Both the position numbers and the translations under genes were made by a program. The notes under the pieces are model-generated. The model saw only the letters and a list, made by a program, of their open reading frames with translations. It searched no databases and was not told where the DNA came from. Below, piece after piece: positions 4,999 through 28,879 of a stretch of DNA of 64,000 nucleotides. This DNA is from Minisyncoccota bacterium (GTDB lineage Bacteria > Patescibacteriota > Minisyncoccia > Minisyncoccales > JAGOPM01). Within the stretch, counting starts at the first letter, position 1; each line of letters starts with the position of its first letter. The stretch is taken from NCBI GenBank assembly GCA_041651395.1, contig JBAZJI010000001.1, positions 635,920 to 699,919 on the forward strand. Direction: 5' to 3'.

Positions 4999-5089
4999 TA
5001 AATAATCTTAACAAAAAATTGCCGCTTAGGCGATTCGTTTGGCCCATTACCCGATTGGAATCAAAACAACCCGGTGCTATACTCTTTTT

Positions 5090-6136: not shown

Positions 6137-6301
6137 TCAGCCTCCTATTTGGGAATGAACTACTGTTGCTATATAACATATCTCCAAAATTAATCAAGCA
6201 AAAACAAATGTGCCAATAGCTAAAGTTCGCATAAAATGCCTCCGAGGGAGGCATTTTATTTTTAAGTTTATTGGCCCAAGATGTTGGAATTCCCTACTTC
6301 T

Positions 6302-10271: not shown

Positions 10272-13200
10272 TTAATCATTGACTACCGGTCTAGTAGGAG
10301 GTGGCAAAATAATACTACTCAAATTAATTAACTTACATTCCTCAAAATTTTTAACGTCGCTATATTTGTGCTCCTTATGCTTATAGGTAGTTTTCAAAAG
10401 ATAGCCCAATCTAAGCCCCTTAGAGTTTAAATATTGTTGCAATATATCTTTTTTAATCTCCAAAAATTGACCATGTGGTAGCGGTAAGTCATGATCATTT
10501 CGTTCTTTCAATCCCTCTAACCAATCGCTTATCGAGACAATGCCTTGATTATTCTTTTCGTAAATAATCTGATCCTCTTCTACCCTCAAAGATAAACCTT
10601 TTTGTAAATTAGGAGCCAAAAGAGAAAATGCGTGATAATCTCGGAAAAATTGCCAAAGAGATATTGTTAAATCTCTTACTCGAATAATTAGCGGATATAT
10701 CGTCAAATCGCCGATGATTCTTGGCTCCGTACGAATAGGGTAAAAATTTGGAAAATTGTCAATAAAATTAAAGGGGCGTTTCGCTTTTGAAGGAATTAAG
10801 ACGCCTGCGGAAGGAGCATCGATTAACTCTGCTGCAACATCTTCAGCTGTAGGGATATCGCAGCCAGAAACTTGATACGCAAAACCTATAAGAGAAAACG
10901 AATAAGCTGCATCATTACCATCCCAGCCACTACTTGGAGTGATAGCACCTTCGGCCAACAATAAACAAGAACTATTAAAGTGGTTTATCAAACTTTCAAT
11001 AGGGCTTTCCAAGCTAATTTGAGAAAGTACTGGATTATTATTTACTTTTAATTTAGGCCACCACCCTGGGGCTCTCCTTGGTTTAACTTTCCAAAGAGCT
11101 AGATCAATTGGTATAGTAGCGTAAGTATATTCTAGATAAAAATCTTCAGGAATAAGACCGGATTTAAAAAAGTATTGCAATACTCTAATGAATGCCGACC
11201 GATATGCTTCGCTTAATTTTGTAGACATACCAACAAGAGTTTCACCTCCGTCTCTCCCTTGAAAATATCCAAGATCAGCATTAAGTCCAATTTTATTCGC
11301 TGAGATTATTTCTTCAGAAGTAAAAGCCCATTGTCTAATAAAGTCTCTACCTCCGCGAGATTCAATTTCTTTAGCTCTATCGTGGTAGATGGGAGCTAAA
11401 AATCCCTTTATATGCTTTTGAAAAAAACTATTGATTTGATAAGCTTCCGGACAAGGATTTATATCCATGTGCCTAGGGAATTCAATATCTTTAATTTTAA
11501 TATTCATTTCCAGTGCTAATTCTTCAATAAGTTTATCTATTACAACAGAACCAATGGGTAGAGATTTGATAACTTCTTCAAAATTTATATATGACAAATC
11601 CGCTTTATTTTTTATCTGAATGGTCTTAAAAAATGGCAACATAGAAACCGCAACAACGCTTTCAAGTGACTGTTTTTTAATCCAATCCGTATATTTTTTA
11701 TATATCTCTTCTCGATGTTCTGATTGATAAAATAACCAAGCTAATGCGTTTGCTGCTTGTCCTCTGACTAAGGGACTTGGCCACAGCAACCTTTGTATTA
11801 ATAGATCAACTTCAGTGATATCTGAATGTTTATAGAAATCGGTTTCCCACACTGGCAAGGGTAATTTGATATCAGCCATTAATTGTTCCGAAAAATTTAT
11901 AGATGCTTCCGTGATAACTTCAGCGTTTTTTAAATCTTCAAATAAGAGAAAAAACTCCACTCCACGAGATAGGGGTATTGAGTGACCAATCTCATCTGAG
12001 CTTCGATTACCAAAAGCGATACTCTTTTTGAAAAATTCTAAATAACGATCAGGATATTTTTCTTTTAAAAATAACCATCTTTGTTGAGCCTTCTTTTTGT
12101 CAGTCCAATATCTAGACCATCCGTAGTCATTTGCCTGTGCTCGACATAAAAATTCGAATGCTTCTTCGTTGCTAAATTCATAGGCAAGGGGGTAAAGCAT
12201 ATCGAGTAATTCCCCAGAAATATCATGAATACCAATATTCGATACGATAGGAACCATTGCTCTAAAAACATTCTCTTTGTTATCTTGTTTTAACCAATAA
12301 GATAACCATCCTTGCAGATATTGATGTCGGCTCCATATATTTTCAAAAGAAAGTTCTTTTAATTTTGTTTCTAGTTGATCAGGTGCAACATCTGAAAAAT
12401 CGGCTTCTTTATATTTTTCGGTAAAGGATGAAGGCGTTTTAGGTTCTTCCGGATAATTAATATCGCCTAGATACTCTGTAATCATACGAAGTGATTGCTT
12501 GGCACCGTTATTCTCTTGAGCGATAATTTTTAGTTTCCCAAAATTTTCTTTATCAATAGCCGTTGCGCCCAAAGCAATCTCCTCTTTTTTGTCATAAGAC
12601 ATAGAACTAATTACTCTTTTAAACAAATCCTGAGCATGGAACAACTCCTCGTTGTTAGCAGAAGCATAATAATCTCTATATAGGGCCGGCCTATTATATT
12701 TTCCTAAAATCTCAGCCAGTTCTAACAGGAGATAATTGGTTTCATCTCCATCGGTGTAATCGGTAACACTTTCAATTATCGAACCTATTCTCTGAATCCA
12801 TGTATTAATTTTTTCTTTTGATGTTCCGAACGACCCACAGAAATCTATCGATTCAAGAACCTCAAACAGATAAACATCTTTGTGATAACCGTATCCGAGT
12901 AAATTATCTGAAGCACTTAATAAAAGCTCTTTTGCGATTTTATTATCATTTTGTAATCGCGCCAAGGAAGCCAGATCAGTATAAGCAACGGTTCTATCTG
13001 GAAAGTAGGTTACTAAATCTTTCGCCTTGCTTATCCGTTGACTAATAAAAAGTCTATATGCATCGTTCGACAAAATAGCTTTATCTTTGCTTATTAAAAA
13101 TTCTAGTAAGTCATTTTCTGAATAAAAAGGCGTACTACAAATAATTTTTAAGTTATCCGTATTTATATCTTCGACATTGTTAAGTACTCGTTTAATAACG

Positions 13201-16199
13201 AATATTATTTCAAGTGCTTGTGATAATGCTCTTGAAAGCCCTACTTGCAAGTCTAACTGATCACGGTCATCGGGCCATTGTAATTTTTCTAATTCTAAAA
13301 ATGGAGCAAACAAATCCTCATAGTTAACACGAGATTCTTTTTTAATACTATTCGAAATTCGCAGGGTTGCCTTAAAAATTGCCGACAAAGCTTTAGCGCA
13401 CCAAATATCTGGTCCGTTGTTATTCCAATCCTCAATATCTTTTTCATGTCCATTCAGGCCATATAATAAAACTGTAAAAAAACAATCGTAAAAAAAATCT
13501 GTCCATTTTTGTCTTTCACTAGAGCTAAACTCGGGAACTTTTGTTGGGAGAGAGTCATAGGACGGAAGTATGGGAAGACTTCCCTTAAAATTACCCCTAA
13601 ATGTCTGAAATACATAAACCGAAAGAGATGAATTTTGTTTATAAAATTCATCGAAATTATTAGCATCATGCTCTAAATCATAAATAATACATTGGTCAAG
13701 TACCGCTACTTTCTCTGCCGAAGTAAGTTCAAAGCTTAGCAGTTTTTTAGTTTTCTCAAGCTGATCAAGAACCAAAAGCTGCTTCGAATAAATACTAAAA
13801 AGATCGGGCGTCCAACCAAGATCATCAAATTGTTTTATATATTTATAAATTCTGTCTACCTCGTGTGTACGATCATATGGTATCGTCTTTAGTAGTGCGC
13901 GTGATACTGATGGCATACTGCTTCCATCGCCCTTTCGTCTGTATTCCTGCCCATGCTGGCGATCGACAAGCTCATCAATAATTTCTTCGATCATTGTGAA
14001 GTCCCCCCTATTATTAGCCAAAGATGCTAAGACTATAAGGTTTGGGGTTGATGTATAAATAATTTCTACATCATCTAACGCTTCTTTGTTCAATTGGATG
14101 GCTTCTGAAAATATTCTCTGGCATCCCTCTTCGACAAAATTAGCCGAATTGAGGTAATAGGTACGAAGATGTGAGAGTGAAAGAACTTTTGCAAAGTCAT
14201 CTTTCTCAAAAGCTGCTTGAGAGGCTAAAATTAATTGCGCATTAATCTGATAAGAATTTCTAGGATGAGAAATAGATTCAAGTAACCATTGCCGATCCAG
14301 CTCAAGAATGGGTTCTGAATCGCCTAGTTCATACTTGATTTTCCTTAATTCTGCCCATTTTAAGGTCTCGTGAGAACTAGTTTCTAACCATTTTTCAATG
14401 TTCTTTTTTAATGTAATTTTTTGCTCTTCAAATGTTGATTGACTTAAAAGAAAGACTTGGAAGCTATTGTGATATACTGTGAGACGATTTTTCCTATCCT
14501 CTCTGATTAAATGTTGAATGGATTGAAATGATTGAGAAATATCAACTGGGTGATTCTCGAAGGAAGATACACATTCTAATAATTGCGTTCTTTTAAAAAC
14601 AAAATTCACACTCGCGAGCGTAAAAAGAACCATCTTAGCTTTATCAGCCAATTGTTTCCACAAAGCATTGTAGTAATTAGAGATGTCTCCACCATAAGGC
14701 ACAATACTATCAATAGCATATTCCGTAACTAATCCAGCATTATGTTTTATTTTTAGTTCGCTTAATAAATAGCGAAGGTGAAGTTGGTTACCTTGAGTAA
14801 CTTTGAACGTTTTTTCTATAAACGCAGGCAATCCATTTTCATTGTCCGGCAAGTTAAGATTAATACAATTCTTGTTTATGATTTTCTTTACAGCATCGCG
14901 ATTAAATCCTAACATTTCTATCCACGTGTCCGATGGACATTTATCGAGAATGATTCCCGAAAGACAATCAGACACACCAGGCTGTGTTCCAAGTATTATC
15001 CATAATCCTGGCTGAGGGAAGCAAACATTTTGAAGAAACTTTTTCAGTTCTTCCTTATCAGCATTTCTTATTACGTGATCTAAGCCATCTATAATCAAAA
15101 CGAATGTCCGCTTTTTTGTTTTCATCCGGGAAGCAAGTGCATCAATATATTCTCTAGGAGAAATATTTTCGGAGTTTTTGTAAGCTAAATCTCCTAGCTC
15201 ATCTGGGTATTGTTTAAATTGTGCCTTTAGTGCCTCAATAACTCTCTCTGAATTTAATCGCTCTTGCGGATTACTATCCTCCGGAGACAAATGGTAATGA
15301 TGTTTTATCGTTATTATCTTTTGTTCAGACAGGACCTGATATAGCTTAGAAAGGTAAACACTTTTACCCGTACCTGGTTTACCGGTAATAATTTTTATTC
15401 CACCATTTGGATTATTAAGCTCTTTTATAATATTTTCGTGAACTTGTTCATCAAAAAATTGAAAATCTTCTGGGATAAAAAAATCTTCCTTAAGCGGTTG
15501 CGGATCATCAAACTCACACCACAATCTTAATTGCTCAAGAGATAAGGGTTGAGTTTGATTACTTCTACATTCTTTATGGATTTGCAGTAATAGATTGTTT
15601 ACTCCGCTTTCTGTAGCCCGTAGATTATTTAAAAAATAATTTTTTACCTGCTCTTCTAATTCCGAGAAATCGGGCTCTTTAAATTTAAAGTTGAATGAAG
15701 AAAAAAAATTTGAAATACGCTCGTCACTGCCTAGTTGATTTAGAATCTTTTGATATAAATCTGTATTTTGTTCCTTAAGTTTTGTAAAGTTGATTTTGCC
15801 ATTTTCTAAAAAATTAGCTACATCTTCTCCTGCTATCGCATTAGTAATTAAACATGCGCATTCAATTGCTTGGGGCTTAAGTTTATTTAATGACTGCTCC
15901 CATTTTTGAATCATTGAAGACCTATTACCAGTAGAGGAGAGAAAATCATCCCATGTCCAAGCGTTCTCTACTTTTTGTCTATGTTTAATTTGATAAAGAC
16001 GGTAAGATTTTTGTGCATTAGTAAGAATGATATCATCCAAATAAAAACGTTCAGCGCCAATCTCTTCTGGTGTCGTTTCAAATTGTAGTTGAGAATAAGA
16101 AGACGGACTGTTTAGCCAATCACCACAAAACTTAAGACCCCACCAGTCTTGGTAATCAAATCCTCCCCTGATTGAACTTGTTGGATTTATTTTTGACAT
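10272..16199 (-). CDS. giant STAND/NACHT-type NTPase with N-terminal Cap4-like (DUF4297-type) nuclease domain
   Basis: The N-terminus has GGFDYQ...LDDIIL...YQIKH (a DUF4297/Cap4-style PD-(D/E)xK variant). Walker A is ITGKPGTGKS (aa 271-280). The NACHT-like Walker B is FVLIIDGLDH. About 1600 aa of unassigned C-terminal sequence follow. Confidence 0.7.
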   Translation of the reverse strand: MSKINPTSSIRGGFDYQDWWGLKFCGDWLNSPSSYSQLQFETTPEEIGAERFYLDDIILTNAQKSYRLYQIKHRQKVENAWTWDDFLSSTGNRSSMIQKWEQSLNKLKPQAIECACLITNAIAGEDVANFLENGKINFTKLKEQNTDLYQKILNQLGSDERISNFFSSFNFKFKEPDFSELEEQVKNYFLNNLRATESGVNNLLLQIHKECRSNQTQPLSLEQLRLWCEFDDPQPLKEDFFIPEDFQFFDEQVHENIIKELNNPNGGIKIITGKPGTGKSVYLSKLYQVLSEQKIITIKHHYHLSPEDSNPQERLNSERVIEALKAQFKQYPDELGDLAYKNSENISPREYIDALASRMKTKKRTFVLIIDGLDHVIRNADKEELKKFLQNVCFPQPGLWIILGTQPGVSDCLSGIILDKCPSDTWIEMLGFNRDAVKKIINKNCINLNLPDNENGLPAFIEKTFKVTQGNQLHLRYLLSELKIKHNAGLVTEYAIDSIVPYGGDISNYYNALWKQLADKAKMVLFTLASVNFVFKRTQLLECVSSFENHPVDISQSFQSIQHLIREDRKNRLTVYHNSFQVFLLSQSTFEEQKITLKKNIEKWLETSSHETLKWAELRKIKYELGDSEPILELDRQWLLESISHPRNSYQINAQLILASQAAFEKDDFAKVLSLSHLRTYYLNSANFVEEGCQRIFSEAIQLNKEALDDVEIIYTSTPNLIVLASLANNRGDFTMIEEIIDELVDRQHGQEYRRKGDGSSMPSVSRALLKTIPYDRTHEVDRIYKYIKQFDDLGWTPDLFSIYSKQLLVLDQLEKTKKLLSFELTSAEKVAVLDQCIIYDLEHDANNFDEFYKQNSSLSVYVFQTFRGNFKGSLPILPSYDSLPTKVPEFSSSERQKWTDFFYDCFFTVLLYGLNGHEKDIEDWNNNGPDIWCAKALSAIFKATLRISNSIKKESRVNYEDLFAPFLELEKLQWPDDRDQLDLQVGLSRALSQALEIIFVIKRVLNNVEDINTDNLKIICSTPFYSENDLLEFLISKDKAILSNDAYRLFISQRISKAKDLVTYFPDRTVAYTDLASLARLQNDNKIAKELLLSASDNLLGYGYHKDVYLFEVLESIDFCGSFGTSKEKINTWIQRIGSIIESVTDYTDGDETNYLLLELAEILGKYNRPALYRDYYASANNEELFHAQDLFKRVISSMSYDKKEEIALGATAIDKENFGKLKIIAQENNGAKQSLRMITEYLGDINYPEEPKTPSSFTEKYKEADFSDVAPDQLETKLKELSFENIWSRHQYLQGWLSYWLKQDNKENVFRAMVPIVSNIGIHDISGELLDMLYPLAYEFSNEEAFEFLCRAQANDYGWSRYWTDKKKAQQRWLFLKEKYPDRYLEFFKKSIAFGNRSSDEIGHSIPLSRGVEFFLLFEDLKNAEVITEASINFSEQLMADIKLPLPVWETDFYKHSDITEVDLLIQRLLWPSPLVRGQAANALAWLFYQSEHREEIYKKYTDWIKKQSLESVVAVSMLPFFKTIQIKNKADLSYINFEEVIKSLPIGSVVIDKLIEELALEMNIKIKDIEFPRHMDINPCPEAYQINSFFQKHIKGFLAPIYHDRAKEIESRGGRDFIRQWAFTSEEIISANKIGLNADLGYFQGRDGGETLVGMSTKLSEAYRSAFIRVLQYFFKSGLIPEDFYLEYTYATIPIDLALWKVKPRRAPGWWPKLKVNNNPVLSQISLESPIESLINHFNSSCLLLAEGAITPSSGWDGNDAAYSFSLIGFAYQVSGCDIPTAEDVAAELIDAPSAGVLIPSKAKRPFNFIDNFPNFYPIRTEPRIIGDLTIYPLIIRVRDLTISLWQFFRDYHAFSLLAPNLQKGLSLRVEEDQIIYEKNNQGIVSISDWLEGLKERNDHDLPLPHGQFLEIKKDILQQYLNSKGLRLGYLLKTTYKHKEHKYSDVKNFEECKLINLSSIILPPPTRPVVND

Positions 16200-16291
16200 T
16201 AATTTTTCACTAAATTATCCACACTTCCATTTTCGTAAGATTTTCGGTATACTATAAATATATCACTTAGTTTTAAAAACATCAATCCATT

Positions 16292-17890
16292 ATGCCTATA
16301 CCAATTACAAAAAGACAAAAAGAAGTCCTAGACTTCATTAAGGGGTTCGTAAAAAAGAAGAAATACCCCCCAACCCTAGAGGAAATATGTAGTGGGCTCA
16401 AGCTTTCCGCTGTATCTACCGCTCATCAACACATTGAAGCTCTTGCTGAAAAAGGATACTTAAAAAAGTCTGGCAATAATGCCCGGTCAATTGACGTGAA
16501 CGAACCAGAAACAATGATTAAGATTCCTCTGCTCGGAACAATTGCGGCCGGAGAACCGATTGAAGCAATCCAGCAAAATGAATTTATTGCTGTGCCTAAA
16601 ACAAAATTACCGGCGCATGGTGAAGTTTATGCCCTTCGAGTAATCGGTAACAGTATGATTGACGAAAATATTAACGATGGAGACATTGTCCTGGTTAAAC
16701 ATCAGAGCACAGCCGAAAACGGCCAAAAAATTGTCGCGCTTATAAACAATCAAGAAACTACCTTAAAAAAATTCTATAAAGAAAATGGCCGCATACGTTT
16801 GCAACCGGCAAATAAAGCCATCGAACCTATTATTTTAGAAAGGGGGACTCCATTGGCTATCCAGGGAATAGTTTTGGATGTGATAGAAAGCCAACCGGGA
16901 ACAGAGGCTTCAAATAAACAAGAAATAAAAAAAGAAGCTGGACAACAACCTCTTTCACTATCACAAAAGAAAATCAAGATCGCTCACAAACCAACCACGG
17001 ATGCCGATGTGATACTTTTTCATGGCGATCGGCTTGATCTTATGAAGGGCTTACCTGATAAATCTGTAAAACTTGTCGTCACTTCACCGCCATACAACAT
17101 TGGCAAAGAATACGAAAAAAGAAAAGATTTAGATTTGTATCTGGCCGAACAAGAAGAAACTATAAAAGAAGCTATCCGTATTCTTACTGATGATGGCAGC
17201 ATTTGTTGGCAGGTTGGAAATCATATCGGCAAAGACGGTGAGGTCTTTCCGCTCGATGCGCTCATTTATGCTATAGGGAAAAAACTAGGTCTTAAATTAC
17301 GAAATAGAATTATTTGGCGATTTGGGCACGGCTTACATTGCACAAAAAGGTTTTCAGGACGACACGAAACAATAGTTTGGTTTACCAAGGGCGATAATTA
17401 TACTTTCAACCTTGATCCTGTCCGCGTGCCCCAAAAGTATCCAGGCAAAAAGAATTTTAAGAAAAATGAAAAGTATGGAACATTATCAGGCAATCCCCTA
17501 GGAAAGAACCCCGAAGATGTGTGGGATATACCAAACGTCAAAAATAATCATCCGGAGAAAACAAATCATCCATGCCAGTTTCCAATTGAGCTTATAGAGC
17601 GTTTGATTTTATCCATGACCAACCCGGGAGATGCTGTACTTGATCCGTATTTGGGCGTAGGGAGCGCAATTTGCGCCGCGGTGATTCATAACCGCAAAGG
17701 ATATGGATCGGACATTATGAAGGGATATTTGGATACTGCTGAAGAAAGAGTCAAAGCAGCTGCAAACGGCACATTAAATCGCCGGATGATGGGAACACCG
17801 GTTTATCAACCAACCAGCAATGTAAAGCTTGCTGAATTACCAGATGAGTTTAAGAAAGCTCGTGAGAGTCTATTTGGGCCCGGGCTTTGA
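16292..17890 (+). CDS. LexA-like self-cleaving repressor fused to a beta-class N4/N6 DNA methyltransferase
   Basis: aa 1-~197 is a full LexA architecture: wHTH (TKRQKEVLDFI...YPPTLEEI...HIEALAEKGYL), cleavage motif IAAGEP, GNSMID (Ser), TTLKKF (Lys). aa ~240-532 has motif IV TSPPYN before motif I DPYLGVGS. Confidence 0.85.
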   Translation: MPIPITKRQKEVLDFIKGFVKKKKYPPTLEEICSGLKLSAVSTAHQHIEALAEKGYLKKSGNNARSIDVNEPETMIKIPLLGTIAAGEPIEAIQQNEFIAVPKTKLPAHGEVYALRVIGNSMIDENINDGDIVLVKHQSTAENGQKIVALINNQETTLKKFYKENGRIRLQPANKAIEPIILERGTPLAIQGIVLDVIESQPGTEASNKQEIKKEAGQQPLSLSQKKIKIAHKPTTDADVILFHGDRLDLMKGLPDKSVKLVVTSPPYNIGKEYEKRKDLDLYLAEQEETIKEAIRILTDDGSICWQVGNHIGKDGEVFPLDALIYAIGKKLGLKLRNRIIWRFGHGLHCTKRFSGRHETIVWFTKGDNYTFNLDPVRVPQKYPGKKNFKKNEKYGTLSGNPLGKNPEDVWDIPNVKNNHPEKTNHPCQFPIELIERLILSMTNPGDAVLDPYLGVGSAICAAVIHNRKGYGSDIMKGYLDTAEERVKAAANGTLNRRMMGTPVYQPTSNVKLAELPDEFKKARESLFGPGL

Positions 17891-18544
17891 CCCGTTGTAT
17901 TTGCGAAGTTTTATTTTTGCTAGAGCCTCTGTTTTATTTGTTTTGAAAAGCTCTCTAAGAGTTTGGGATTTTGTTTTTTCTTCATCGGTCAAGCCGATAC
18001 TTAAAACGAATACCGGAATATCAATATTACTTTCTCCTCGATTCTCAAAATCAACAAGTAGCTGTTCAAATGAGGAAACGCCGGTAGACATCAATTTTAC
18101 TAGCTCACTACTAGGCACGATCTCTATTCCGCATTCGATATATTTGAGATTTTTGAAAATGATCATCTTAGAAAAAATGTCATAGCCCATAAAGGCGTAT
18201 TTGCCGAATTGAATTTCCAGCCCAACCTTATTTTTTATTCCATCCATTTCGCGGAATCTGCCTTTGCCAAAAGCATGGCGTGGTTCAACAAAATCTCGTT
18301 TCTTACCGTCTTTTGATTTCTCGGTCCAACCCTTTTTGTGAAGCTCGTGTTTTAAATAATCATTCATGTCCACCGGCGAGAAAAGAACCTGTCCTTTTTT
18401 AGTTTTTTCTTTGCTCTCCTTCGTTAAACAAATAGTGCTATCCAAGGATTTTATTGCATTAAAAACTTCCTGAAGTTCTTTCGGGTGTTTTTCCTTGAGA
18501 AATTTCTCTCCGCCCTTAAATGAATAAGTATTGATAATCTTCAT
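17870..18544 (-). CDS. type II restriction endonuclease, BglII/BamHI-fold-like
   Basis: EMDGIKNKVGLEIQFGKY parallels the BglII D-x9-E-x-Q catalytic segment. IECGIEIVPSS and DIPVFVLSIG parallel later BglII strands. Convergent with the MTase, with a 21-nt overlap. Confidence 0.55.
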   Translation of the reverse strand: MKIINTYSFKGGEKFLKEKHPKELQEVFNAIKSLDSTICLTKESKEKTKKGQVLFSPVDMNDYLKHELHKKGWTEKSKDGKKRDFVEPRHAFGKGRFREMDGIKNKVGLEIQFGKYAFMGYDIFSKMIIFKNLKYIECGIEIVPSSELVKLMSTGVSSFEQLLVDFENRGESNIDIPVFVLSIGLTDEEKTKSQTLRELFKTNKTEALAKIKLRKYNGSKPGPK

Positions 18545-18939
18545 AATTCTATCTAAATTAAAAATCCCTTATAACTACAGAATATCAGAGAAATAGAAAA
18601 AAATCTATAACTAAGTTTTTTGTCAGCTTTTGTCAGATTGATTTATCCACATAGGGCCCTATTGACGGCAGCCTTTATGGTCCGCTATTATGGACCTGTA
18701 AGATAGGAGTTTGCCTGACGGCGTTCCGATTTATCGGAACTAAGTGAGACGGGGCTACGACTTCTGTCATTAAGCACTACGTGTTTTTTGCTTGATGATT
18801 AGAAGTGGTAGCCCTTTTTTGTTTGTATAAATTAATTTAATACCCTTCTGAGGCAATCGCCTGGATAGGACATACATTTTGATAAGACGAGATTAGAGGC
18901 TAGCTCCCAGTTGGGGCCAGCCTTTTATGTTGCCCCAAG

Positions 18940-20479: not shown

Positions 20480-20992
20480 TTATTTTGATGTAATAAAAAC
20501 ACGTTTTCTCTTGAGTAATAAATAAACAATGCTCAATATCAAAGTTATGCCGACCGGTGGTATCGCATACAGCACGAGATTAGCGATATTGAATAAGATT
20601 GATATTCCGCCATTCAAAATATTAAACAACCACGGCACGAGATAAGAGTAGGAAATGTACATCAGAAATAGCCAGAGTACTGCCTTGATGAAATTATAAA
20701 GCTCCCACATGCCAAAAGCTTTGACCACAATGTCGTGCAGTACTTTGTAAAATTTAATCACGTATAGAAACAAGCCGATCGTACAAAAAGTAAAAGCACT
20801 ATAAAACACCCGGACAAAAATGCTTGGTGCAGACAATGGACTGATTGATTGCCATTGAAACTTAATTCCCAAAACAAAATGCCAGAGTAACAATACAAAA
20901 GCCAAAATCACGTAAGTTGTGGCCGAGCCCACTACCTCCTTAGCGTTTTTTAGCAGAACCTTTTTGTGCCAATTATTGCTTTGCGTTTTCAT
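20480..20992 (-). CDS. four-helix membrane protein
   Basis: 170 aa with about four hydrophobic helices. Its start overlaps the upstream stop by 4 nt. Confidence 0.55.
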   Translation of the reverse strand: MKTQSNNWHKKVLLKNAKEVVGSATTYVILAFVLLLWHFVLGIKFQWQSISPLSAPSIFVRVFYSAFTFCTIGLFLYVIKFYKVLHDIVVKAFGMWELYNFIKAVLWLFLMYISYSYLVPWLFNILNGGISILFNIANLVLYAIPPVGITLILSIVYLLLKRKRVFITSK

Positions 20993-22791
20993 TTTGGTTT
21001 TTCATTTTTCCTGACCAGCGAAAGGCAGATCAATACATGAATGAGACGATTAGCGACATCTTCACCCTCAAAAAGCTTCTTATTTATTCCGTGTGCGAAA
21101 TTGTTTCTGAGATTCCAGCCGACCCTCTCGGTGAGTAATACCCGGAGATAATACTCAACGTTTTCTCCCATAGTTTGAAAGATGCCTTTGATGAGGCCTC
21201 GGCTTAGTAATTTATCAAGGCTAAGAACATCGTAGCCTCCGTCATCGTTAGGCCGAATGTAGGTTTGATTGTTGATACGATATAAATTTCTGACAGCATC
21301 CTCGATGAGCGGGATGCTCAAGCAACATGCGGTGAGATAATCCTTATTCCAAAAAGATGTAAGCAATTTTGAAATGTAATCTTTATCTTCAGGTCTAAAA
21401 ACTGGAGATAAAAACAAAACTTCGGTAAATTGCTCTGGCGTGTATAGCTCGCGTACTTTCTGAAATGCGATTCTCAAAAATACAGCTTGGAAGTGTAGAT
21501 TACGAGAAAAGTTTTCCAAAAGGTGTTTATCGTAGTCATCACTAATTGAACCAAATTTGACGATCGGGTAGCCTTCCTCCGAAGCCATAACGTGACTAGC
21601 CAGATAAGTGATGGGGTGGTTTTTTGCTAAATCGTTTAACTGATCTTCTACTGACTTTTTACGCAAAATAAAATTGACAGCAAGCCTTGCCATCACCTTG
21701 TCCAACGGATCAGAATTGTCTGTGCCGAAAATTGAGGTGATGAATTTATTAATATCCTCGTTTTTGATTTTTACTTCAGTAGAGATTTCATGCATTGCGA
21801 ACTTGCCTCGTTCGCCAAGATTGCTCAATTCATTAACAATTCGTGCTCGTGCGTCTTTTGCGAATTGAAAAGATGCATACTCAAGATAAATATCAATGAG
21901 TTTCTCAAGATAATTACTGATAAGCATTCCATCCGAATTTGCGTACTTATTTTTTCGGTATGATGCCTCGAAATCATCGAGTACTCTTTTTAGGTTGGCT
22001 TCATCCTGATTTGCGGAATAGTAAGGTGCGAGCAGTCGGACTGCACATTCCACGCGCCATGGGTCTGGGTCTTCGGTTGTCATAAGCCGTTTCAGACGAT
22101 CTTCAAGGTCGGTGAGTAATTTCGTTTTATCCTCATCCGAAAGAGTAATCTTCCCAGTCTTATCCAAAACCAGCCACTTAAATGCGTGACCCCAGAGACC
22201 GGGCTTGTCGTCTTCGGCATATTTACCCTCGGTCGCTATGATGCTGTCCTTAAGTTTGTGAATTCGCACACTGTCGTTGATTTGAATAGCTAACCCCAAT
22301 GCACGCTCGAGCTTATCTTTGCAACCTAATCCATCATCAAGACTAGCGACACAAATTTCTATTGCAGAATCTATAACCTTTTGAGCGATTATGAAATCAA
22401 TACTTTTCTTCAAAACAACGGGTTCGAAATCAAATACTAGATCCGAATAACGGTAAGCTAAAATCGGATGCCTGCATTCACCGGCTCGTTTTCTCCAGTA
22501 ATTCAATGTTTCCTCGTCAACCTGTTTGATGCTTGGAAACTCTGTAAACTGACCCTGATCATTTTTCCAAACAATCATAGGCCCGTGGTAGGTTCCCCAA
22601 CCAGTATCTTTAGTCGGATAATGAGCCATAAACTGGAAAGCAATGTACTCGGCTAATTCCTCTTTATCTGTAAGTTTTTCCTGTTTTGCATTCAGAACCC
22701 GTCCAATCTTTTCACCCAACACAAATTCCTCGATCGGCTCGATCTTGTTTTCTAACTCAACAAAATAATCTTGTAACGCTTTTCTGATCAT
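20989..22791 (-). CDS. DUF4209-like protein with C-terminal HEPN-type Rx4H motif
   Basis: 600 aa. The C-terminal GWNLRNNFAHG (nt 21081-21122) is the motif I recall as the DUF4209 signature. Its start overlaps the upstream stop (ATGA). Confidence 0.55.
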   Translation of the reverse strand: MIRKALQDYFVELENKIEPIEEFVLGEKIGRVLNAKQEKLTDKEELAEYIAFQFMAHYPTKDTGWGTYHGPMIVWKNDQGQFTEFPSIKQVDEETLNYWRKRAGECRHPILAYRYSDLVFDFEPVVLKKSIDFIIAQKVIDSAIEICVASLDDGLGCKDKLERALGLAIQINDSVRIHKLKDSIIATEGKYAEDDKPGLWGHAFKWLVLDKTGKITLSDEDKTKLLTDLEDRLKRLMTTEDPDPWRVECAVRLLAPYYSANQDEANLKRVLDDFEASYRKNKYANSDGMLISNYLEKLIDIYLEYASFQFAKDARARIVNELSNLGERGKFAMHEISTEVKIKNEDINKFITSIFGTDNSDPLDKVMARLAVNFILRKKSVEDQLNDLAKNHPITYLASHVMASEEGYPIVKFGSISDDYDKHLLENFSRNLHFQAVFLRIAFQKVRELYTPEQFTEVLFLSPVFRPEDKDYISKLLTSFWNKDYLTACCLSIPLIEDAVRNLYRINNQTYIRPNDDGGYDVLSLDKLLSRGLIKGIFQTMGENVEYYLRVLLTERVGWNLRNNFAHGINKKLFEGEDVANRLIHVLICLSLVRKNEKPK

Positions 22792-23891
22792 AATCTTTTA
22801 TATAAACCAAAACCCGTTGCTAATCCTGACCCCCACTTGTTAGGATCTTGGGTCAATTGGTGAATCTTTTTATTGATAGGATCAAACAAGTGACCACATC
22901 CGAAATCATTTCTTTTGAACTCGTCAGGAATTAGTCCAAGCACAACTGTATAAATCCTTTTTCCAAGAAAACTAATCTTTGACACGAGATTACCATTCTC
23001 TTTGCTAAAAATAACGGTATGACCGATAAAACGCATGTTATCAATTTTTTCATCATAAATAATAGGCTCACTGCCAAGTTCAGCAATCACTTGTTTAACC
23101 GGCAAATCTGATTCTCCAATAATGTAGGATTTGATCACGGAGAAATTTGGATGGAACAAAATATCAGCTCTATTCTCTTGGATGGCACAATGAGAAAAAT
23201 AATTAAATGCGATTTTTGAAATTACTCTGCCAGCATCTGCCCCGACCGTACAATCCATTGAAACTTCAAATTGTTTTTTAGGTCCGTTTTTATCAATTGG
23301 GGCAAATTTTCTTTTACCTTCCTTATAATCAATTCCGAGTTTCTTCAAAATATCTATCGCTTCCTGAAGCGGTCCGTCATCGGTATCACTATTACCTCCG
23401 GTAAATATAGATACATCTTTACTCTGAACACCTGTAAGGAGTTTTTTAATCTCTAAAAATTTCTTTTTATTAAGTTTTTTTAACTCATCAACTAAAAGAA
23501 TTAGATAACCATTGTCACCATATCGTTTTATCTTAATCTGAGGCAAAAGAAAAATCCTCCAATTGTTGTCTTGGTGTTTTAAGAATGGGAACATTTCGTT
23601 AAAAAAGTCGTCTCCCAGTCCAGGGGAAAAAGTCGTTTTTACATTATTACCTCTAATTCTTATCTGGCAACTATTTTGAAAATTAAACATCTGGTAATAG
23701 ATACCTTCTTCGGTGTCTTCTTTAAATTTTGTTTCCAAGACATTAAAGATTTTTGAATTACAATTGTCACACACCCAACCTCTTAGAGTCGGATTATTTT
23801 CAAAAGTACCCATTAACTGCGGAATTACGTGTTCTCGGCCGTTAAAAGTTGCTTCATTTTCTTTTTTATCACAGTAAATGCATCTAGACAT
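22788..23891 (-). CDS. HNH-type nuclease-domain protein with unassigned ~300-aa C-terminal region
   Basis: N-terminal CIYC...EHVIPQLMG...CDNCN, the Cys4/His-Asn pattern of HNH endonucleases. Confidence 0.5.
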   Translation of the reverse strand: MSRCIYCDKKENEATFNGREHVIPQLMGTFENNPTLRGWVCDNCNSKIFNVLETKFKEDTEEGIYYQMFNFQNSCQIRIRGNNVKTTFSPGLGDDFFNEMFPFLKHQDNNWRIFLLPQIKIKRYGDNGYLILLVDELKKLNKKKFLEIKKLLTGVQSKDVSIFTGGNSDTDDGPLQEAIDILKKLGIDYKEGKRKFAPIDKNGPKKQFEVSMDCTVGADAGRVISKIAFNYFSHCAIQENRADILFHPNFSVIKSYIIGESDLPVKQVIAELGSEPIIYDEKIDNMRFIGHTVIFSKENGNLVSKISFLGKRIYTVVLGLIPDEFKRNDFGCGHLFDPINKKIHQLTQDPNKWGSGLATGFGLYKRL

Positions 23892-23898
23892 AAATTTA

Positions 23899-24645
23899 TT
23901 AATACTTCCACTCCTCGTACGACAAAATGAAGCTGTTCAGTTCTTCTTTTATGCCTTTCCACTTCGGGATGTATTTTGCCATTAGGGCGACAAATTTGTC
24001 GCTGTGTTTTTTCTCAATCAAATGTAAAAGCTCGTGGACTACGACATACTCCACGCAGGCAATCGGCTTTTTGGCCAGCTCTAAATTTATCAAGACTCGA
24101 GCTCGCTTGTGATTACAAGTACCCCAGCGAGTCTTCATCTGCTTGATACCCCAATACTTAACCTCTACACCCATTTTCTTTTGCCATTTGGTAATCAGAT
24201 CACCGACAATCACATGCAACTCTTTGCGATACCAGTCCATCATCACTTCTCGACGCTTGATCGCCGGACTCTTTGGTCGAACCTGTAAAATAATCTTGTT
24301 TTTGCCTTTCAAGGTAACAACAGGTGCCTCGTCTTTATAAACCACTTCAAGGCGGTAGCGTTTGCCAAAAAAGTAATGGCTTTCACCGGAGGAATAATCA
24401 CGCTTGGTCTGTCTTTCTTGACCGGTAAATTTGGCTTGCTGTTTCTTAATCCACGGCAGTCTCAAAGCCAAGAGCGTGCGAATAGCATCGTCTTTCATAT
24501 TTGCCGGTGCGGTTACGCGAACCCAACCGTTGGGAGGCAAAACCGAAAGGTGCAAGTTCTTGATCGGCTTGCGAACGACCAGAGCCTCAACACTGCCAAG
24601 TTGTAGATAAGAATTAGTACTCATTTTGATTCTTGATGATCTCAA
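23899..24645 (-). CDS. YgjP-like (DUF45 / M48-type) zinc metallopeptidase associated with type I R-M
   Basis: WGTCNHKRARVLINLELAK...YVVVHELLHLIEKKHSDKF (HExxH). An alternative start at 24624 is possible. Either start overlaps the end of hsdR. Confidence 0.75.
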   Translation of the reverse strand: MRSSRIKMSTNSYLQLGSVEALVVRKPIKNLHLSVLPPNGWVRVTAPANMKDDAIRTLLALRLPWIKKQQAKFTGQERQTKRDYSSGESHYFFGKRYRLEVVYKDEAPVVTLKGKNKIILQVRPKSPAIKRREVMMDWYRKELHVIVGDLITKWQKKMGVEVKYWGIKQMKTRWGTCNHKRARVLINLELAKKPIACVEYVVVHELLHLIEKKHSDKFVALMAKYIPKWKGIKEELNSFILSYEEWKY

Positions 24646-27637
24646 AGAGGTTTTTCAATTCCTCGTCCGTTATTTCAGGCAAAGCATTTTTGATTTCAAT
24701 CTTAATGGCTCGCTCTTTCAAACGATTACCACGCCAGTCGGCCTGTCGTGAAGCGATTACGGCTTCATGCACCGCCACGGATTTATTTACATCCTGACCG
24801 AGGTTGTCATAAATCGCTCGCTTGGCGGAAGTATTTATTTCTGCACCGACTGACTCGTCCATTGGATTTTTAACTTTCTTGGACAAAGCCACGATCTGCT
24901 TGAGATATTCTTTATACTCAACATCAGCCTGTTTACGTTTCTTGACCAGCTCGTCCAAGAGTTCCGACATCCGCAAATAATACTTCGGGTTAGTCGGCAT
25001 CTCATCAATGATCAGCTTGCGGACGTTGTTCTCAATCGTTTCAGCAACTGCTTCCTGACTTTGTTTAATTGCATCCGGTAAATCATTCAAAGCGTCTTCG
25101 CCTTTCTTCACGATCAAATCAACCAAAGTCATATCATCAAACGCTGACAACTTCTCGCTCTCGGTAGCCGAGATATAACGATCAATCAAAACTCGCATTG
25201 CCGGTTCGTATTTCTTGAGATCAATATAGTCACCACTGGCAAGTTTAACTTCCATTCGCACTTGTTCGTAATGTCTAACTTCGTGCTCAATTGCTTGCGA
25301 CTGATCTTTGGTATAACCGGCATTAGCCATATCGTTGGCCAAGTCCGCATAAGCTCGAAGCAAATGGCTGACAGATTTATAAAGCTTCACTCGCTTGATT
25401 TCGTTTTCTTTGAGAGAGTATGGATTTTCAACATCACCGCAGAAATAGCGGATATACATGGCTGAATCTTTTGGCGGAGACACTGGTTCGCAAAGTGCCT
25501 TCACGATTTCCATCGCCTCATCCAAATCCTTTTTGCCTTCGTCCATGCGATCCTTCAAAAGCCCCATCACATCTTCCTTATCAAAACCCTCAAGAGCACC
25601 GGCGGTATAATCACCGACGGCTTTCTCCAGCTTTTTGAATAGGTCCCGATAGTCCACAATGTAGCCGTACTCTTTATCCTCACCATCCAATCGGTTCACA
25701 CGGCAAATCGCTTGGAACAAGCCGTGATCCTGCATATTCTTATCAATGTAAAGATAAGTAGCTGGTGGTGCGTCAAAACCGGTCAAAAGTTTATCAACCA
25801 CAATCAGAAGTTGCATCTGACCCGGAGTCTCAATAAATTTCTTTTTGATTTCTTTCTCAAAATCTTCCGTGCTTTTACCATTAAGCATTTTTTGATAGAC
25901 CGCATACTCGCGAGTATCGGTAGATAATGCACCGGGTTCATACGAAGTTACCACGGCACACTTAGTAAAGCCCATCGTCTGGAAAATTTCATAATACTGA
26001 CACGCTTCGTAGATACTGCTGGCCACCAGCATGGCATTGCCACGACCACTGGCTAGACGATCCTTTTTGTAGAAGTCGTCAAGAATATCAAAAACCACCT
26101 TCTCCAATCGTGATCGAGATGAAAGCAAACTTTGCATCGTACCCCAGCGTCGCTTGAGTTCGGCTTTGGCGACATCGGTAAGTCCCTGGGTGCGTTCTTC
26201 AAACCATTCGTCAATCTTATCTTGGGAGCTGATAGTTTGATCAACTCGGCGAGCTTCATAACGCAAATCCAAAACCACCTTGTCGGCCACGGCTTCGTTG
26301 TATTTGTAAGTATGGATATACGGTCCGAAAGCCCCGATGCTGTTTGATTTATCAACCTTGAGAAGCGGTGTGCCGGTAAAGCCAAGAAATGTAGCCGTTG
26401 GCAAAAGTTCCTTCATAGCCTCGTGCAGTTTGCCGGTATGAGAGCGATGACATTCATCCACAAACACAAACAAATTGCCTTTGGCGGAAAAGTCCTTCGG
26501 TAAGTTTTTCTTTATCTCTGAAAGATAGTCATCAACATCAAGCTCGCCGGTCCCGTTTACTCGGCCAAATTTATGCACGAGCGAACAAAGTAACCATTTA
26601 TCTTTTTTATTTAATTCATCCAATAAGTCTCTGGCACTTGGTGCTCGATATATTTCCTCGTTAACGCCGTCAAAGACCTGTTTGATTTGCTGATCCAGTT
26701 CTGTGCGGTCAGTAAGCAAAAGCACCCGAGCATCGTTGATATTCTCGCGAATCCATTTAGCTAGCCAAACCATCGTCAAACTCTTACCACTGCCTTGGGT
26801 ATGCCAAACAATTCCACCCTCGTGACGATTGACATAATCCTGCGCCGCTTTAATGCCAAAATATTGATTGTGTCGGCAAGTCTTTTTTATACCGCTGTCA
26901 AAGACAATAAAGTCGTGGATGATTTCCAGCAGTCGCTTCTTATCACATATCTGCAAAATGGCTCGGTCCAATCTGGACTCACTGCCAAGCCCCATCTCTT
27001 TCCAAGACAGGTAATGCTGTTCGGGAGTTTCGGTTGTGCCATAACGCAAACCCTCGGTATCATTACCGGCCATTACCAACTGAATTGTGCCGAAAAATGT
27101 TTTGATAAATTCTTCTTTTTGATTGCCGATGTTTTGGCGAATACCTTCGGACACGGACACGATGCTTCGCTTGAGTTCAATCACGCCGACAGCGATGCCG
27201 TTCACATACAACACAATATCCGGTCGTTTGGTGCGGTTGCCTTTGATCGTCACTTCCTCGGCAATAGCAAAATGATTATTCTCCGGATGTTCCCAGTCAA
27301 TGAATTCAACATCCTGTTTATGCTCTCCCAGCTTCTCCCGTTCTTTGGCACTGTAGCGAAGCAAGCTATAAGTTTCTTTATTGAGATCATACAAGCTCAT
27401 CTGCGGACGATTGGTGCATTTCTTTAACTTCTCAATGGCTTTGCCGATCAGGGTTTCGCTATGACCGGATCGCAAAAGGAAAGAGCGTAAATAGACCTCT
27501 TCAACATTGTTATTTTCCTCGCGTTCTTCAAAGTTGCCGAGATAATCATAGCCGAGCCGATCACGAAACAAAGCCACAATACGATCTTGCGTTTTGCGTT
27601 CCAGCTGGCCGACTTTAGTTGTGTTTAGTGTGTCCAT
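24614..27637 (-). CDS. hsdR: type I restriction enzyme R subunit
   Basis: Helicase motif I TQGSGKSLT and motif II DECHRS. 1007 aa, immediately downstream of hsdS. Confidence 0.9.
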   Translation of the reverse strand: MDTLNTTKVGQLERKTQDRIVALFRDRLGYDYLGNFEEREENNNVEEVYLRSFLLRSGHSETLIGKAIEKLKKCTNRPQMSLYDLNKETYSLLRYSAKEREKLGEHKQDVEFIDWEHPENNHFAIAEEVTIKGNRTKRPDIVLYVNGIAVGVIELKRSIVSVSEGIRQNIGNQKEEFIKTFFGTIQLVMAGNDTEGLRYGTTETPEQHYLSWKEMGLGSESRLDRAILQICDKKRLLEIIHDFIVFDSGIKKTCRHNQYFGIKAAQDYVNRHEGGIVWHTQGSGKSLTMVWLAKWIRENINDARVLLLTDRTELDQQIKQVFDGVNEEIYRAPSARDLLDELNKKDKWLLCSLVHKFGRVNGTGELDVDDYLSEIKKNLPKDFSAKGNLFVFVDECHRSHTGKLHEAMKELLPTATFLGFTGTPLLKVDKSNSIGAFGPYIHTYKYNEAVADKVVLDLRYEARRVDQTISSQDKIDEWFEERTQGLTDVAKAELKRRWGTMQSLLSSRSRLEKVVFDILDDFYKKDRLASGRGNAMLVASSIYEACQYYEIFQTMGFTKCAVVTSYEPGALSTDTREYAVYQKMLNGKSTEDFEKEIKKKFIETPGQMQLLIVVDKLLTGFDAPPATYLYIDKNMQDHGLFQAICRVNRLDGEDKEYGYIVDYRDLFKKLEKAVGDYTAGALEGFDKEDVMGLLKDRMDEGKKDLDEAMEIVKALCEPVSPPKDSAMYIRYFCGDVENPYSLKENEIKRVKLYKSVSHLLRAYADLANDMANAGYTKDQSQAIEHEVRHYEQVRMEVKLASGDYIDLKKYEPAMRVLIDRYISATESEKLSAFDDMTLVDLIVKKGEDALNDLPDAIKQSQEAVAETIENNVRKLIIDEMPTNPKYYLRMSELLDELVKKRKQADVEYKEYLKQIVALSKKVKNPMDESVGAEINTSAKRAIYDNLGQDVNKSVAVHEAVIASRQADWRGNRLKERAIKIEIKNALPEITDEELKNLFEIIKNQNEY

Positions 27638-27641
27638 ATTG

Positions 27642-28877
27642 TTATTTTGTAAGTAATCTTATTTTGCCTGTTAAAAGTGTTTGCATCATTCCTTGTTTAA
27701 TATTTTGGTATTTGGTAAGTTGCGATTCTAGTTTTTCAATTTCGGTGTCCATGTCGGAGAGGACAGTGGCGATAGCGACTTGTTCTGGCTCTTCCGGCAT
27801 TACAATCTCCAAATCTAGTAAATCTTTCCCTTGCAAATGGTGAATTGTTATTCCTTTTGTTTTTTGAGCAATATCATTTTTATAGATATGTGTTAAGCAA
27901 TAAGCAAGAAAAATTGAATCGTACACATTTCGTAGTTTACGAATAATATTAATGTCGCCACCAAGTAAAATATTATCAGACAGCAACGCTGATGCTTTTG
28001 CTAAATCAATACCAGTTGTAGTAGTTGATCCCGGGATCAAAATATCACCCTTTTTTGAAAGAACACCTTCTTCAAAATCGGTCTTGCTGTAAACATCCTT
28101 TATTATTTCAAGATAAGTTGTGAATAATTCGCCATATAAAATACACGGATATTTTCCCGAGAAAGATAATTTTCCTTTTGATAATCCCTGTCCCTTAGTA
28201 GTCTGTGCAATTTCTCCTAATTTTTTTACTTCCCATTTACCGCTAGAACCGGCGAGGCGACGCTTGCCTGTAAGTAATTCCTGCATCGCACCCTGTTTGA
28301 TATTCTTTTTCTTTTGGATTAGTTTTTCGGTTTTTGTAATCAGTGCATCTGTATCGGATAGGATAGAGATAATAGCAGTTTGTTGAGGCTTGGTAGGACA
28401 AATAAATTTAGTACTCTTTAAAATACTATTGTACAACCGTTGAATTGTTCCACCTTCAGTATTGTATTTTACAATTTGAAAAACATAATACAGATAACCA
28501 TTGGAAATCAGTTCTTCGTTGTTATCAATCCAGACTATATTTGAATCCTGAAAATATGCCGGTATCCCATCATAAACTATCGTCCTACCTATCGTGCCAG
28601 CTGCAGAAATTAATACATCGCCTTTTTTGGGAAATGAAAACCTGTGTCGGTAGTTATCGTATAAATCCTGTGATATATAAGCATCAGCTTCTTTTCCAAA
28701 TGTTCCAATTTTATAAAATGGAATTATACCCACATCTTTAGTTTCGTGATTAAAAATTCGCCTACACATTTTTATTTCTCCAAGATCGCCTAGCTTTTTG
28801 ACATCCCAATCCGCCGGAATCATGCCGATCTCGGTTTGTTTGTATCCTGATGGAATTTTTTGCGTTGCGGTCGTCAT
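27642..28877 (-). CDS. hsdS: type I restriction-modification specificity subunit
   Basis: Two target-recognition halves, each ending in the conserved spacer (QQTAIISILSDTDALI...IKQGAMQELLTGK and EQVAIATVLSDMDTEI...IKQGMMQTLLTGK). Confidence 0.85.
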   Translation of the reverse strand: MTTATQKIPSGYKQTEIGMIPADWDVKKLGDLGEIKMCRRIFNHETKDVGIIPFYKIGTFGKEADAYISQDLYDNYRHRFSFPKKGDVLISAAGTIGRTIVYDGIPAYFQDSNIVWIDNNEELISNGYLYYVFQIVKYNTEGGTIQRLYNSILKSTKFICPTKPQQTAIISILSDTDALITKTEKLIQKKKNIKQGAMQELLTGKRRLAGSSGKWEVKKLGEIAQTTKGQGLSKGKLSFSGKYPCILYGELFTTYLEIIKDVYSKTDFEEGVLSKKGDILIPGSTTTTGIDLAKASALLSDNILLGGDINIIRKLRNVYDSIFLAYCLTHIYKNDIAQKTKGITIHHLQGKDLLDLEIVMPEEPEQVAIATVLSDMDTEIEKLESQLTKYQNIKQGMMQTLLTGKIRLLTK

Positions 28878-28879
28878 AA

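Follow-up and report, generated by a model that had tools for sequence, protein, structure and literature searches.

A LexA repressor fused to the methyltransferase of a BstYI-type restriction-modification module in Patescibacteria: a probable link between DNA damage and modification

The 64,000-nucleotide stretch of DNA analysed here comes from a Minisyncoccota bacterium (GenBank assembly GCA_041651395.1, contig JBAZJI010000001.1, forward-strand positions 635,920 to 699,919; hereafter the window, numbered from its first letter). It carries a Type II restriction-modification (R-M) module in which the DNA methyltransferase (M) forms a single polypeptide with a LexA repressor and converges on the gene of a BstYI-like restriction endonuclease (R). 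The methyltransferase can be made only as a LexA fusion under a lexA promoter, an arrangement by which DNA methylation is probably wired to the DNA-damage alarm.

The fusion gene (16292..17890, + strand) encodes a LexA half, a linker and a beta-class SPPY DNA methyltransferase in 532 amino acids (aa). A sequence-only reading of this DNA had given its coordinates exactly, together with those of the 224-aa endonuclease gene (17870..18544, - strand) and their 21-nt 3′ overlap. The LexA half comprises a winged helix-turn-helix (wHTH) DNA-binding domain (aa 4-65, 16301..16486, +; Pfam PF01726 LexA_DNA_bind, 5.6e-17), within which lies the recognition helix S-T-A-H-Q-H-I (aa 42-48, +) whose classes were compared across homologues, and an S24 autopeptidase/dimerisation domain (aa 79-194, 16526..16873, +; Pfam PF00717 Peptidase_S24, 2.1e-28). 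The N-terminal 200 aa score 181.5 bits against the NCBIfam LexA equivalog TIGR00498 (cut-off 110.95) and align pairwise with Escherichia coli LexA at 34% identity (E 9e-33). The Ala-Gly autocleavage site and Ser/Lys dyad proposed earlier from motifs are borne out by this alignment, in which Ala86-Gly87 (LLGTIAA/GEP, 16547..16552, +), Ser121 (codon 16652-16654, +) and Lys159 (codon 16766-16768, +) fall on A84-G85, S119 and K156 of E. coli LexA. Each of A86, G87, S121 and K159 is invariant in all 88 fused homologues described below, among which mean identity is about 66% for the LexA halves and 86% for the methyltransferase halves. Because the cleavage residues are strictly kept in the faster-evolving half, autocleavage is arguably in use; the LexA half is complete, and retention of autocleavage is the natural inference. 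Predicted cleavage at A86/G87 would, as had been supposed, part the DNA-binding domain (aa 1-86) from a fragment made of the S24 domain and the methyltransferase. The protein differs from a free LexA of about 200 aa with an SOS regulon in being a 532-aa fusion, and the 64-kb window holds no other box-bearing genes.

A low-complexity linker of about 25 aa (aa 201-224, 16892..16963, +) joins the two halves. In an AlphaFold2 model built with 35 homologues, the protein consists of three folded modules, and residues 201-224 are predicted to be disordered (predicted local distance difference test score below 50), which is compatible with independent function of the domains. From the end of the S24 domain to the conserved methyltransferase core, the open reading frame (ORF) lacks an in-frame Met ahead of M251, so that the methyltransferase can be made as a fusion only; the start codons of unfused relatives lie inside the linker stretch or shortly beyond it. 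The catalytic domain (aa 259-485, 17066..17746, +) is a full-length match to Pfam PF01555 N6_N4_Mtase (1-221/221, 6e-52). Motif IV, SPPY (aa 265-268, 17084-17095, +), precedes motif I, DPYLGVGS (aa 451-458, 17642-17665, +), in agreement with the beta-class assignment made from the sequence, and SPPY is kept in 87 of the 88 fused homologues. Relatives in the Protein Data Bank (PDB) include M.RsrI, CcrM, M.MboIIA and M.PvuII. SPPY, as opposed to DPPY, is typical of N4-cytosine enzymes, and on this motif N4-cytosine is tentatively preferred over N6-adenine as the target base here.

The converging partner is a BstYI-like Type II restriction endonuclease (Pfam PF09195 Endonuc-BglII, 1.5e-18) with catalytic residues D101/E110/Q112. 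It had been called BglII-like; the family holds, whereas the closest structural relative is BstYI (PDB 1sdo, E 9e-32, with the catalytic motif aligned) and not BglII (4.6e-5), and the spacing given as D-x9-E-x-Q is in fact D101-x8-E110-x-Q112. The two genes overlap at their 3′ ends over 21 nt (17870..17890), which leaves no room for a terminator between them, and the tail-to-tail overlap recurs in all relatives from the Candidate Phyla Radiation (CPR), fused and unfused. With intact methyltransferase motifs, intact endonuclease catalytic residues and adjacency of M and R in all relatives, the module qualifies as a Type II R-M system of the BstYI type, with RGATCY as the probable target. Site counts, which the sequence-only reading had left without a conclusion, give a divided answer: RGATCY is not depleted window-wide (21 observed vs 27 expected in 64 kb), whereas it is absent from positions 1-22438, a 22.4-kb segment that includes the module and in which 10-12 sites are expected. 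None of 300 third-order Markov simulations reached zero for this segment, which contains 55 GATC sites, and the other 41.6 kb carries all 21 RGATCY sites, near expectation. This local avoidance of the site, which spans the module and its neighbours, is consistent with a BstYI-type specificity and with horizontal movement of the segment.

The fusion is recurrent. Searches for the architecture in NCBI, JGI, ENA and Logan assemblies yielded at least 88 clusters of full-length homologues (523-559 aa, 70-100% identity), all with the three Pfam domains. Essentially all belong to Patescibacteria/CPR, the few named ones being Parcubacteria, Uhrbacteria and 'Patescibacteria group'. Among genomes taken as one representative per species, eight carry the fused gene, under the labels Saccharibacteria, Paceibacterota, Nomurabacteria, Patescibacteria, one metagenome-assembled genome labelled Elusimicrobiota and one unclassified 'bacterium'; seven more fused loci come from metagenomes. 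At all 14 further loci for which DNA was available, R (67-91% identical) lies convergently beside the fused gene, truncated by the contig end in three. The presence of an intact R next to every fused M implies that the fusion must be a working methyltransferase. M homologues of other phyla, at about 55-65% identity, lack a LexA part, and their R mostly lies downstream in the same orientation. Database names for the protein range over 'BstYI methyltransferase', 'adenine-specific DNA-methyltransferase', 'LexA repressor' and 'hypothetical protein'.

Upstream of the fusion gene, a tandem direct repeat TTTCG-N6-TTTCG with an 11-bp period (TTTCGTAAGA-TTTTCGGT, 16231..16248, +) fills the -35/-10 spacer and abuts a candidate -10 hexamer TATACT (16248..16253, +) of a lexA-type promoter, read from the sequence; TATAAT or TATACT stands at the equivalent place in other loci. 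The -35 is weak, and a consensus promoter scan missed the M promoter. Exact matches to TTTCG-N6-TTTCG number one in the 64-kb window. A tandem repeat of 11-bp period precedes all fused genes, either in the -35/-10 spacer or, in one class, just beyond the -10 in inverted form. Both copies vary in step between loci and track the residue between the two His of the S-T-x-H-X-H recognition helix: HQH/HEH helices go with TTTCGG in most cases (one HEH locus, L009, has TTTAGGT), HFH with TTTCTAT, HKH with TTTCGCT, and HHH/HYH with TCGAAA-N5-TCGAAA, inverted and downstream of the -10. At free-standing CPR lexA genes, the promoter is laid out in the same way, and helix and repeat are paired by the same rule (HQH in L162 and L165-L167, HFH in L163 and L164, HHH in L161). 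The tandem repeat is read as the CPR LexA box, probably correctly, because of this covariation with the recognition helix and its presence at free CPR lexA genes. One paper (PMC7739468) describes Patescibacteria LexA as recognising a direct-repeat motif, which agrees with the present repeat. We regard the fusion as a lexA gene that was joined in frame, with its own promoter, to M. Since the gene keeps a native lexA promoter with a direct-repeat box, the LexA part most likely autorepresses M.

A second potential element was observed in this region. A conserved (A)AGTCAA sequence stands 8-25 nt before the lexA start at L001, L003, L006, L009, L081, L082, L084, L087 and L163-L167, and the match of this type in the window (~16270-16285) is weak. 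In several loci it is an inverted copy of the sequence covering the -35 and first repeat, as in L082 (TTGACTTTCGA...TCGAAAGTCAA), and it may be a second operator placed over the ribosome-binding region.

With each locus's own 18-mer and up to 3 mismatches, no LexA box was found near R at any locus, the M promoter being the only match, and direct LexA control of R is thus unsupported. One box match with 1 mismatch inside the R coding region (18479-18494) was discarded as being at chance level (7 observed vs 10.6 expected). In the 5′ end of R, a terminator-like hairpin with a T-run (18469-18494, +) overlaps this LexA-box-like TTTCGGGTGTTTTTCC (1 mismatch); if functional, it would let M transcripts run antisense through nearly all of R and then stop, and it could equally be due to chance.

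CPR relatives with an unfused M (methyltransferase part 76-89% identical) offer a comparison. Directly upstream of R, they carry a gene for an XRE-type protein of 68-72 aa that, by its sequence, is a textbook controller (C) protein. Paired C-boxes (...GCTAACTATAGTATGTAG...GTATACTATAGTTAGC...) precede C, and another C-box half-site stands right before M; with C-boxes before both C/R and M, C would control both arms of the unfused sister systems. In the fused genes, the C-box before M is gone and a lexA promoter is in its place. Counting only loci with enough flank (8 unfused, 10 fused), a canonical C gene is present at 7/8 unfused loci (L007, L008, L010, L011, L088, L090, L092) and at 2/10 fused loci (L002, L082); another XRE gene occurs at 2/10 fused loci (L006, L009), and the remaining 6/10, including the window, have no helix-turn-helix (HTH) gene. 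Upstream of R in the window (18545-18939), there is no C homologue, HTH ORF or C-box. The fusion accompanies loss of C, though not strictly. The XRE gene of L006 (6247-6465, -), which has a counterpart at the same position in L009, encodes an HTH_3 protein of 72-73 aa, ends 3-4 nt before R and is unrelated in sequence to the canonical sister C-protein; it may be an alternative controller.

The free LexA proteins nearest to the fused domain are in turn linked to restriction genes. Free-standing CPR LexA proteins have 203-216 aa and are 60-70% identical to the fused domain. At five loci, lexA is followed after 0-20 nt by a gene for a DpnI-family methyl-dependent endonuclease of 256-261 aa (L162:3001-4412, L163:3001-4414, L164:3001-4426, L165:1463-2892 and L166:742-2171), an apparent operon in which LexA has 211-214 aa and is 63-66% identical to the fused domain; conserved small ORFs follow dpnI, and the contexts vary. 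L167 (1916-3483) pairs a free lexA, whose 216-aa product has 87% identity with a fused LexA domain, with a different N6_N4-type methyltransferase gene; the latter is unfused, begins 39 nt downstream and runs off the contig end. L007 (3953-6451) is a hybrid: 41 nt separate the end of a divergent LexA-like gene (209 aa, PF01726 and PF00717, only 30% identical), which may have a Cys-Gly site, from an unfused M, and R is still preceded by the canonical C gene. A LexA-like match (26%) was also seen upstream of M on the opposite strand in L092. A neighbour-joining tree intermingles LexA domains of the fused and the free kind (the fused P0043 and the dpnI-linked P0198 share 91% identity), and similarities of the two halves of the fusion are poorly correlated (r = 0.39). 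Homology between free and fused loci in tblastx comparisons covers lexA and about 130 nt of upstream promoter and stops at the lexA 3′ end; a chromosomal site shared by fused and free lexA was rejected on the non-homology of their flanks. In CPR, LexA thus seems to have become linked to restriction genes repeatedly, in what looks like a portable cassette of promoter, lexA and restriction cargo with repeated exchange of LexA.

The model that we consider best, and to which we give somewhat better than even odds, combines autorepression of M, damage-triggered self-cleavage and a shift towards modification. The fusion would dimerise via S24, and its wHTH would bind the tandem-repeat box over the -35/-10 spacer, holding the methyltransferase at a set level, a role played by the C-box before M in the unfused sisters and by the N-terminal HTH domain in SsoII-type methyltransferases. 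DNA breaks or single-stranded DNA, whether caused by self-restriction where methylation is incomplete, by repair synthesis or by phage attack, would lead to RecA filaments that stimulate autocleavage at Ala86-Gly87, after which the released DNA-binding domain would leave the promoter open and methyltransferase output would rise. Given that the convergent M and R overlap at their 3′ ends, which leaves no terminator in between, stronger M transcription should hinder that of R. The net effect would be a damage-triggered tilt to modification that shields the chromosome when unmethylated sites arise or the endonuclease starts cutting self DNA; it would correspond, in a Type II system and at the level of transcription, to restriction alleviation. 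In a naive cell, which has no repressor, M would come first and R would be held back, an establishment delay otherwise provided by a C-protein; C may be dispensable in most fused systems because the fusion circuit itself would give this delay. The earlier proposal of a damage-sensing controller that rewires the R:M balance is plausible and now has a candidate operator at M; direct control of R is not supported.

Several points weigh against this model. No R promoter or LexA box is recognisable at R in the window, and the effect on R is read from gene geometry. The covariation of helix and repeat comes from a few clades that lack phylogenetic independence. Neither recA nor a second lexA was seen in the window, which spans only 64 kb. 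A host LexA, if there is one, would occupy the same box, and regulation might then not need the fused domain. The view that LexA strictly replaces C is weakened by the 4/10 fused loci that keep an HTH gene upstream of R. After cleavage, moreover, the methyltransferase stays attached to S24, and degradation of this fragment could lower, not raise, methyltransferase activity; E. coli LexA fragments are degraded by ClpXP and Lon.

This last point leads to the opposite outcome, suicide or abortive infection, in which cleavage exposes degrons, the S24-methyltransferase fragment is lost, methylation lapses and the stable endonuclease kills the cell. For want of an internal start, no methyltransferase molecule is free of the cleavable module; the module sits in a defence island, its neighbours being a STAND protein of the Cap4-nuclease/NACHT kind and a Type I R-M system; both E. 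coli LexA fragments are protease substrates; and the new C-terminus ...TIAA left by cleavage resembles an ssrA-type tag. Even so, we consider this outcome distinctly unlikely: cleavage would also lift the repressor off the M promoter, predicting a burst of full-length, active fusion, killing the host at each SOS episode would be costly for tiny-genome organisms, and the high conservation of the methyltransferase half together with the disordered linker suggests an enzyme that works regardless of the state of LexA. The 'addiction/suicide switch' of the sequence-only reading is not favoured for the same reason, as derepression after cleavage predicts more methyltransferase and a protective shift. 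As the physiological direction, we hold restriction alleviation to be likelier than suicide, with moderate confidence. A different possibility is that restriction cargo in CPR genomes simply tends to land, or to be expressed, downstream of lexA and that the fusion is a neutral or addiction-type result of losing a stop codon; the LexA part would then be an ordinary SOS repressor, and the methyltransferase would gain SOS induction and protection from loss without any R:M logic. Such hitch-hiking agrees with the free lexA genes (85-91% identity with fused domains) that have dpnI or another methyltransferase immediately downstream, with a promoter and box identical in kind to those of free lexA, and with the interleaved tree and discordant halves (r = 0.39; 66% vs 86%), which suggest repeated exchange with a resident lexA. 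We nevertheless judge it unlikely, since fused and free flanks share only lexA and ~130 nt of promoter, and hence no single conserved lexA site, since at least 88 diverged clusters have kept a fusion, not an operon, with the linker at a conserved place, and since loss of the C-protein accompanies the fusion.

Two further alternatives carry still less weight. If S24 served only as a dimerisation and DNA-binding scaffold that stays uncleaved in vivo, the protein would be a plain HTH-methyltransferase autoregulator with no damage sensing. For the operator and the lost C-box at M, autorepression would be explanation enough, and beta-class methyltransferases, the PDB relatives of this one included, often act as dimers; yet the invariance of Ala-Gly, Ser and Lys in 88/88 proteins whose LexA halves are only ~66% identical, and a LexA half scoring above the LexA equivalog cut-off, make this very improbable. 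The chance that two genes were joined in error, in assembly or through a frameshift (as the sequence-only reading had allowed for) or in annotation, is negligible: no support for it was found, though a few close relatives have separate genes (the lexA-like gene followed by M in L007), and the same uninterrupted ORF in 88 clusters and 14 other loci rules it out, so that the fusion is genuine. Returning to the damage-responsive model, its broader form, that LexA was recruited repeatedly as a built-in damage sensor for CPR restriction systems, whose RecA-stimulated self-cleavage resets the balance of methylation and restriction in place of a C-protein timer, is put forward tentatively and falls short of an even chance.

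Each part of the module has known counterparts. It shares with CPR LexA (TIGR00498) the wHTH and S24 domains, the Ala-Gly site, the Ser/Lys dyad, the promoter layout and the direct-repeat box, and differs in having a 330-aa C-terminal methyltransferase and in sitting in an R-M cassette inside a defence island. With the BstYI/BglII/BamHI group it has in common a BstYI-homologous endonuclease with D...E-x-Q and a beta-class SPPY methyltransferase; unfused sisters are C-controlled, whereas the window has neither a C gene nor a C-box, and a lexA promoter with lexA coding sequence has taken the place of the M promoter. Methyltransferases of the SsoII, Ecl18kI, EcoRII and MspI type likewise have an N-terminal DNA-binding domain and an operator over their own promoter (a candidate one here). 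Autoregulators of the SsoII type are simple HTH extensions on C5-cytosine methyltransferases and take no signal input; here, in contrast, a full two-domain damage sensor, predicted to be self-cleaving, is carried on an amino-methyltransferase, which makes the protein an analogue of that type and not a member.

A 2013 review of R-M regulation (PMC3874152) names as its means C-proteins, N-terminal HTH domains on methyltransferases, methylation of promoters and antisense RNA. Fusions of C-protein and endonuclease (CR.NsoJS138I and relatives) are in-frame, arose repeatedly and have a linker that is sometimes ~25 aa (PMC3850674); they place an uncleavable C-protein on the endonuclease, whereas the present fusion places LexA on the methyltransferase. 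In Type I restriction alleviation, ClpXP degrades HsdR after DNA damage (PMC4231737, PMC11109961). The proposed outcome is the same, namely a balance moved off restriction after damage or the appearance of unmodified host sites, avoiding autoimmunity; the means differ: in Type I systems a host protease degrades the restriction subunit post-translationally, and the proposal here is autoproteolysis of a repressor domain within the methyltransferase, acting on transcription. The repressors CapH/CapP, CapW/BrxR and CapK/CapS also lie by immune genes and are inactivated on DNA damage or by single-stranded DNA, in CapH/CapP via repressor cleavage, but they are separate genes of unrelated families, none of them LexA and none fused to the enzyme it controls.

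A LexA-methyltransferase fusion or a lexA-restriction operon is not described in the literature searched, which included the CapK/CapS paper and a 2025 R-M review, neither of which mentions LexA; the sequence-only reading had likewise known of no such methyltransferase, and no prior account of the LexA-S24-methyltransferase architecture emerged from this search. All parts are of known kinds, and an apparently self-cleaving damage sensor inside a Type II modification enzyme is a new combination. If the model is true, this would be the first methyltransferase gated by its own autoproteolysis and a Type II, SOS-coupled form of restriction alleviation. None of the documented Type II R-M controls takes input from the state of the chromosome, and the LexA fusion would link DNA breaks to the level of modification; avoidance of autoimmunity after damage and repair has been worked out for Type I alone, as restriction alleviation. 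The helix and operator classes HQH, HFH, HKH and HHH constitute a natural specificity series for LexA-DNA recognition, and the repeated linkage of lexA to restriction suggests that LexA in these tiny genomes may largely manage defence genes.

Besides the LexA box, a DnaA-box-like 9-mer is associated with lexA promoters. It reads TGTGGATAA (TTATCCACA on the + strand) just upstream of the M promoter (16215..16223, -), and a second TTATCCACA copy (18643-18651) lies upstream of R next to a TTTTGTCAG-C-TTTTGTCAG direct repeat (18618..18651 in all). The 9-mer is a perfect DnaA-box consensus, and these are its 2 copies in 64 kb, a scarcity on which its role as a general promoter element was rejected. 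In 958 kb of loci, 16 of its 30 copies fall within 170 nt upstream of fused or free lexA starts, a space that makes up 0.37% of the sequence, and nearly all CPR lexA genes, fused or free, carry it 40-150 nt ahead of the start codon (L004-L006, L009, L083-L086, L161-L167). Its orientation varies, and it shows no covariation with the LexA helix. It is unlikely to be part of the LexA operator, being invariant while repeats and helix vary and flipping in orientation; DnaA or another invariant factor may act on lexA promoters through it.

The second copy may instead belong to a + strand promoter-like site, TTGACG-18-TATTAT (18662-18691), that is divergent from R. The 138-nt stretch that follows this site (to 18832) has a folding energy of -56.3 kcal/mol (z = -7.8 vs shuffles) and ends with a long GC hairpin and a T-run. 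Rfam (E up to 1) and ARAGORN searches of the region from 15.5 to 20 kb returned no matches, this stretch included. It may encode a small RNA divergent from R that shares the TTATCCACA element.

The module is surrounded by a defence island, with a Cap4/NACHT protein on one side and a Type I R-M system and other genes on the other. Immediately upstream, a 1975-aa ORF (10272-16199, -) combines an N-terminal Cap4-type dsDNA nuclease, a NACHT/STAND P-loop ATPase and about 1500 aa without a Pfam match, and is a candidate Avs-like antiviral STAND protein. On the other side, a run of genes on the - strand (20989-31309) encodes a DUF4209 protein (600 aa), an HNH_5 nuclease (367 aa), a YgjP-like metallopeptidase (248 aa) and a complete Type I R-M system made up of hsdR (1007 aa), hsdS (411 aa) and hsdM (809 aa). 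Upstream of R in the C-less fused loci L004 (~6290-6480) and L083 (~4790-5000), the sequence looks tRNA-like by eye, which suggests insertion beside tRNA loci, and in L087 a gap of 37 nt separates R from the end of a large ORF guessed to encode a conjugative coupling ATPase.

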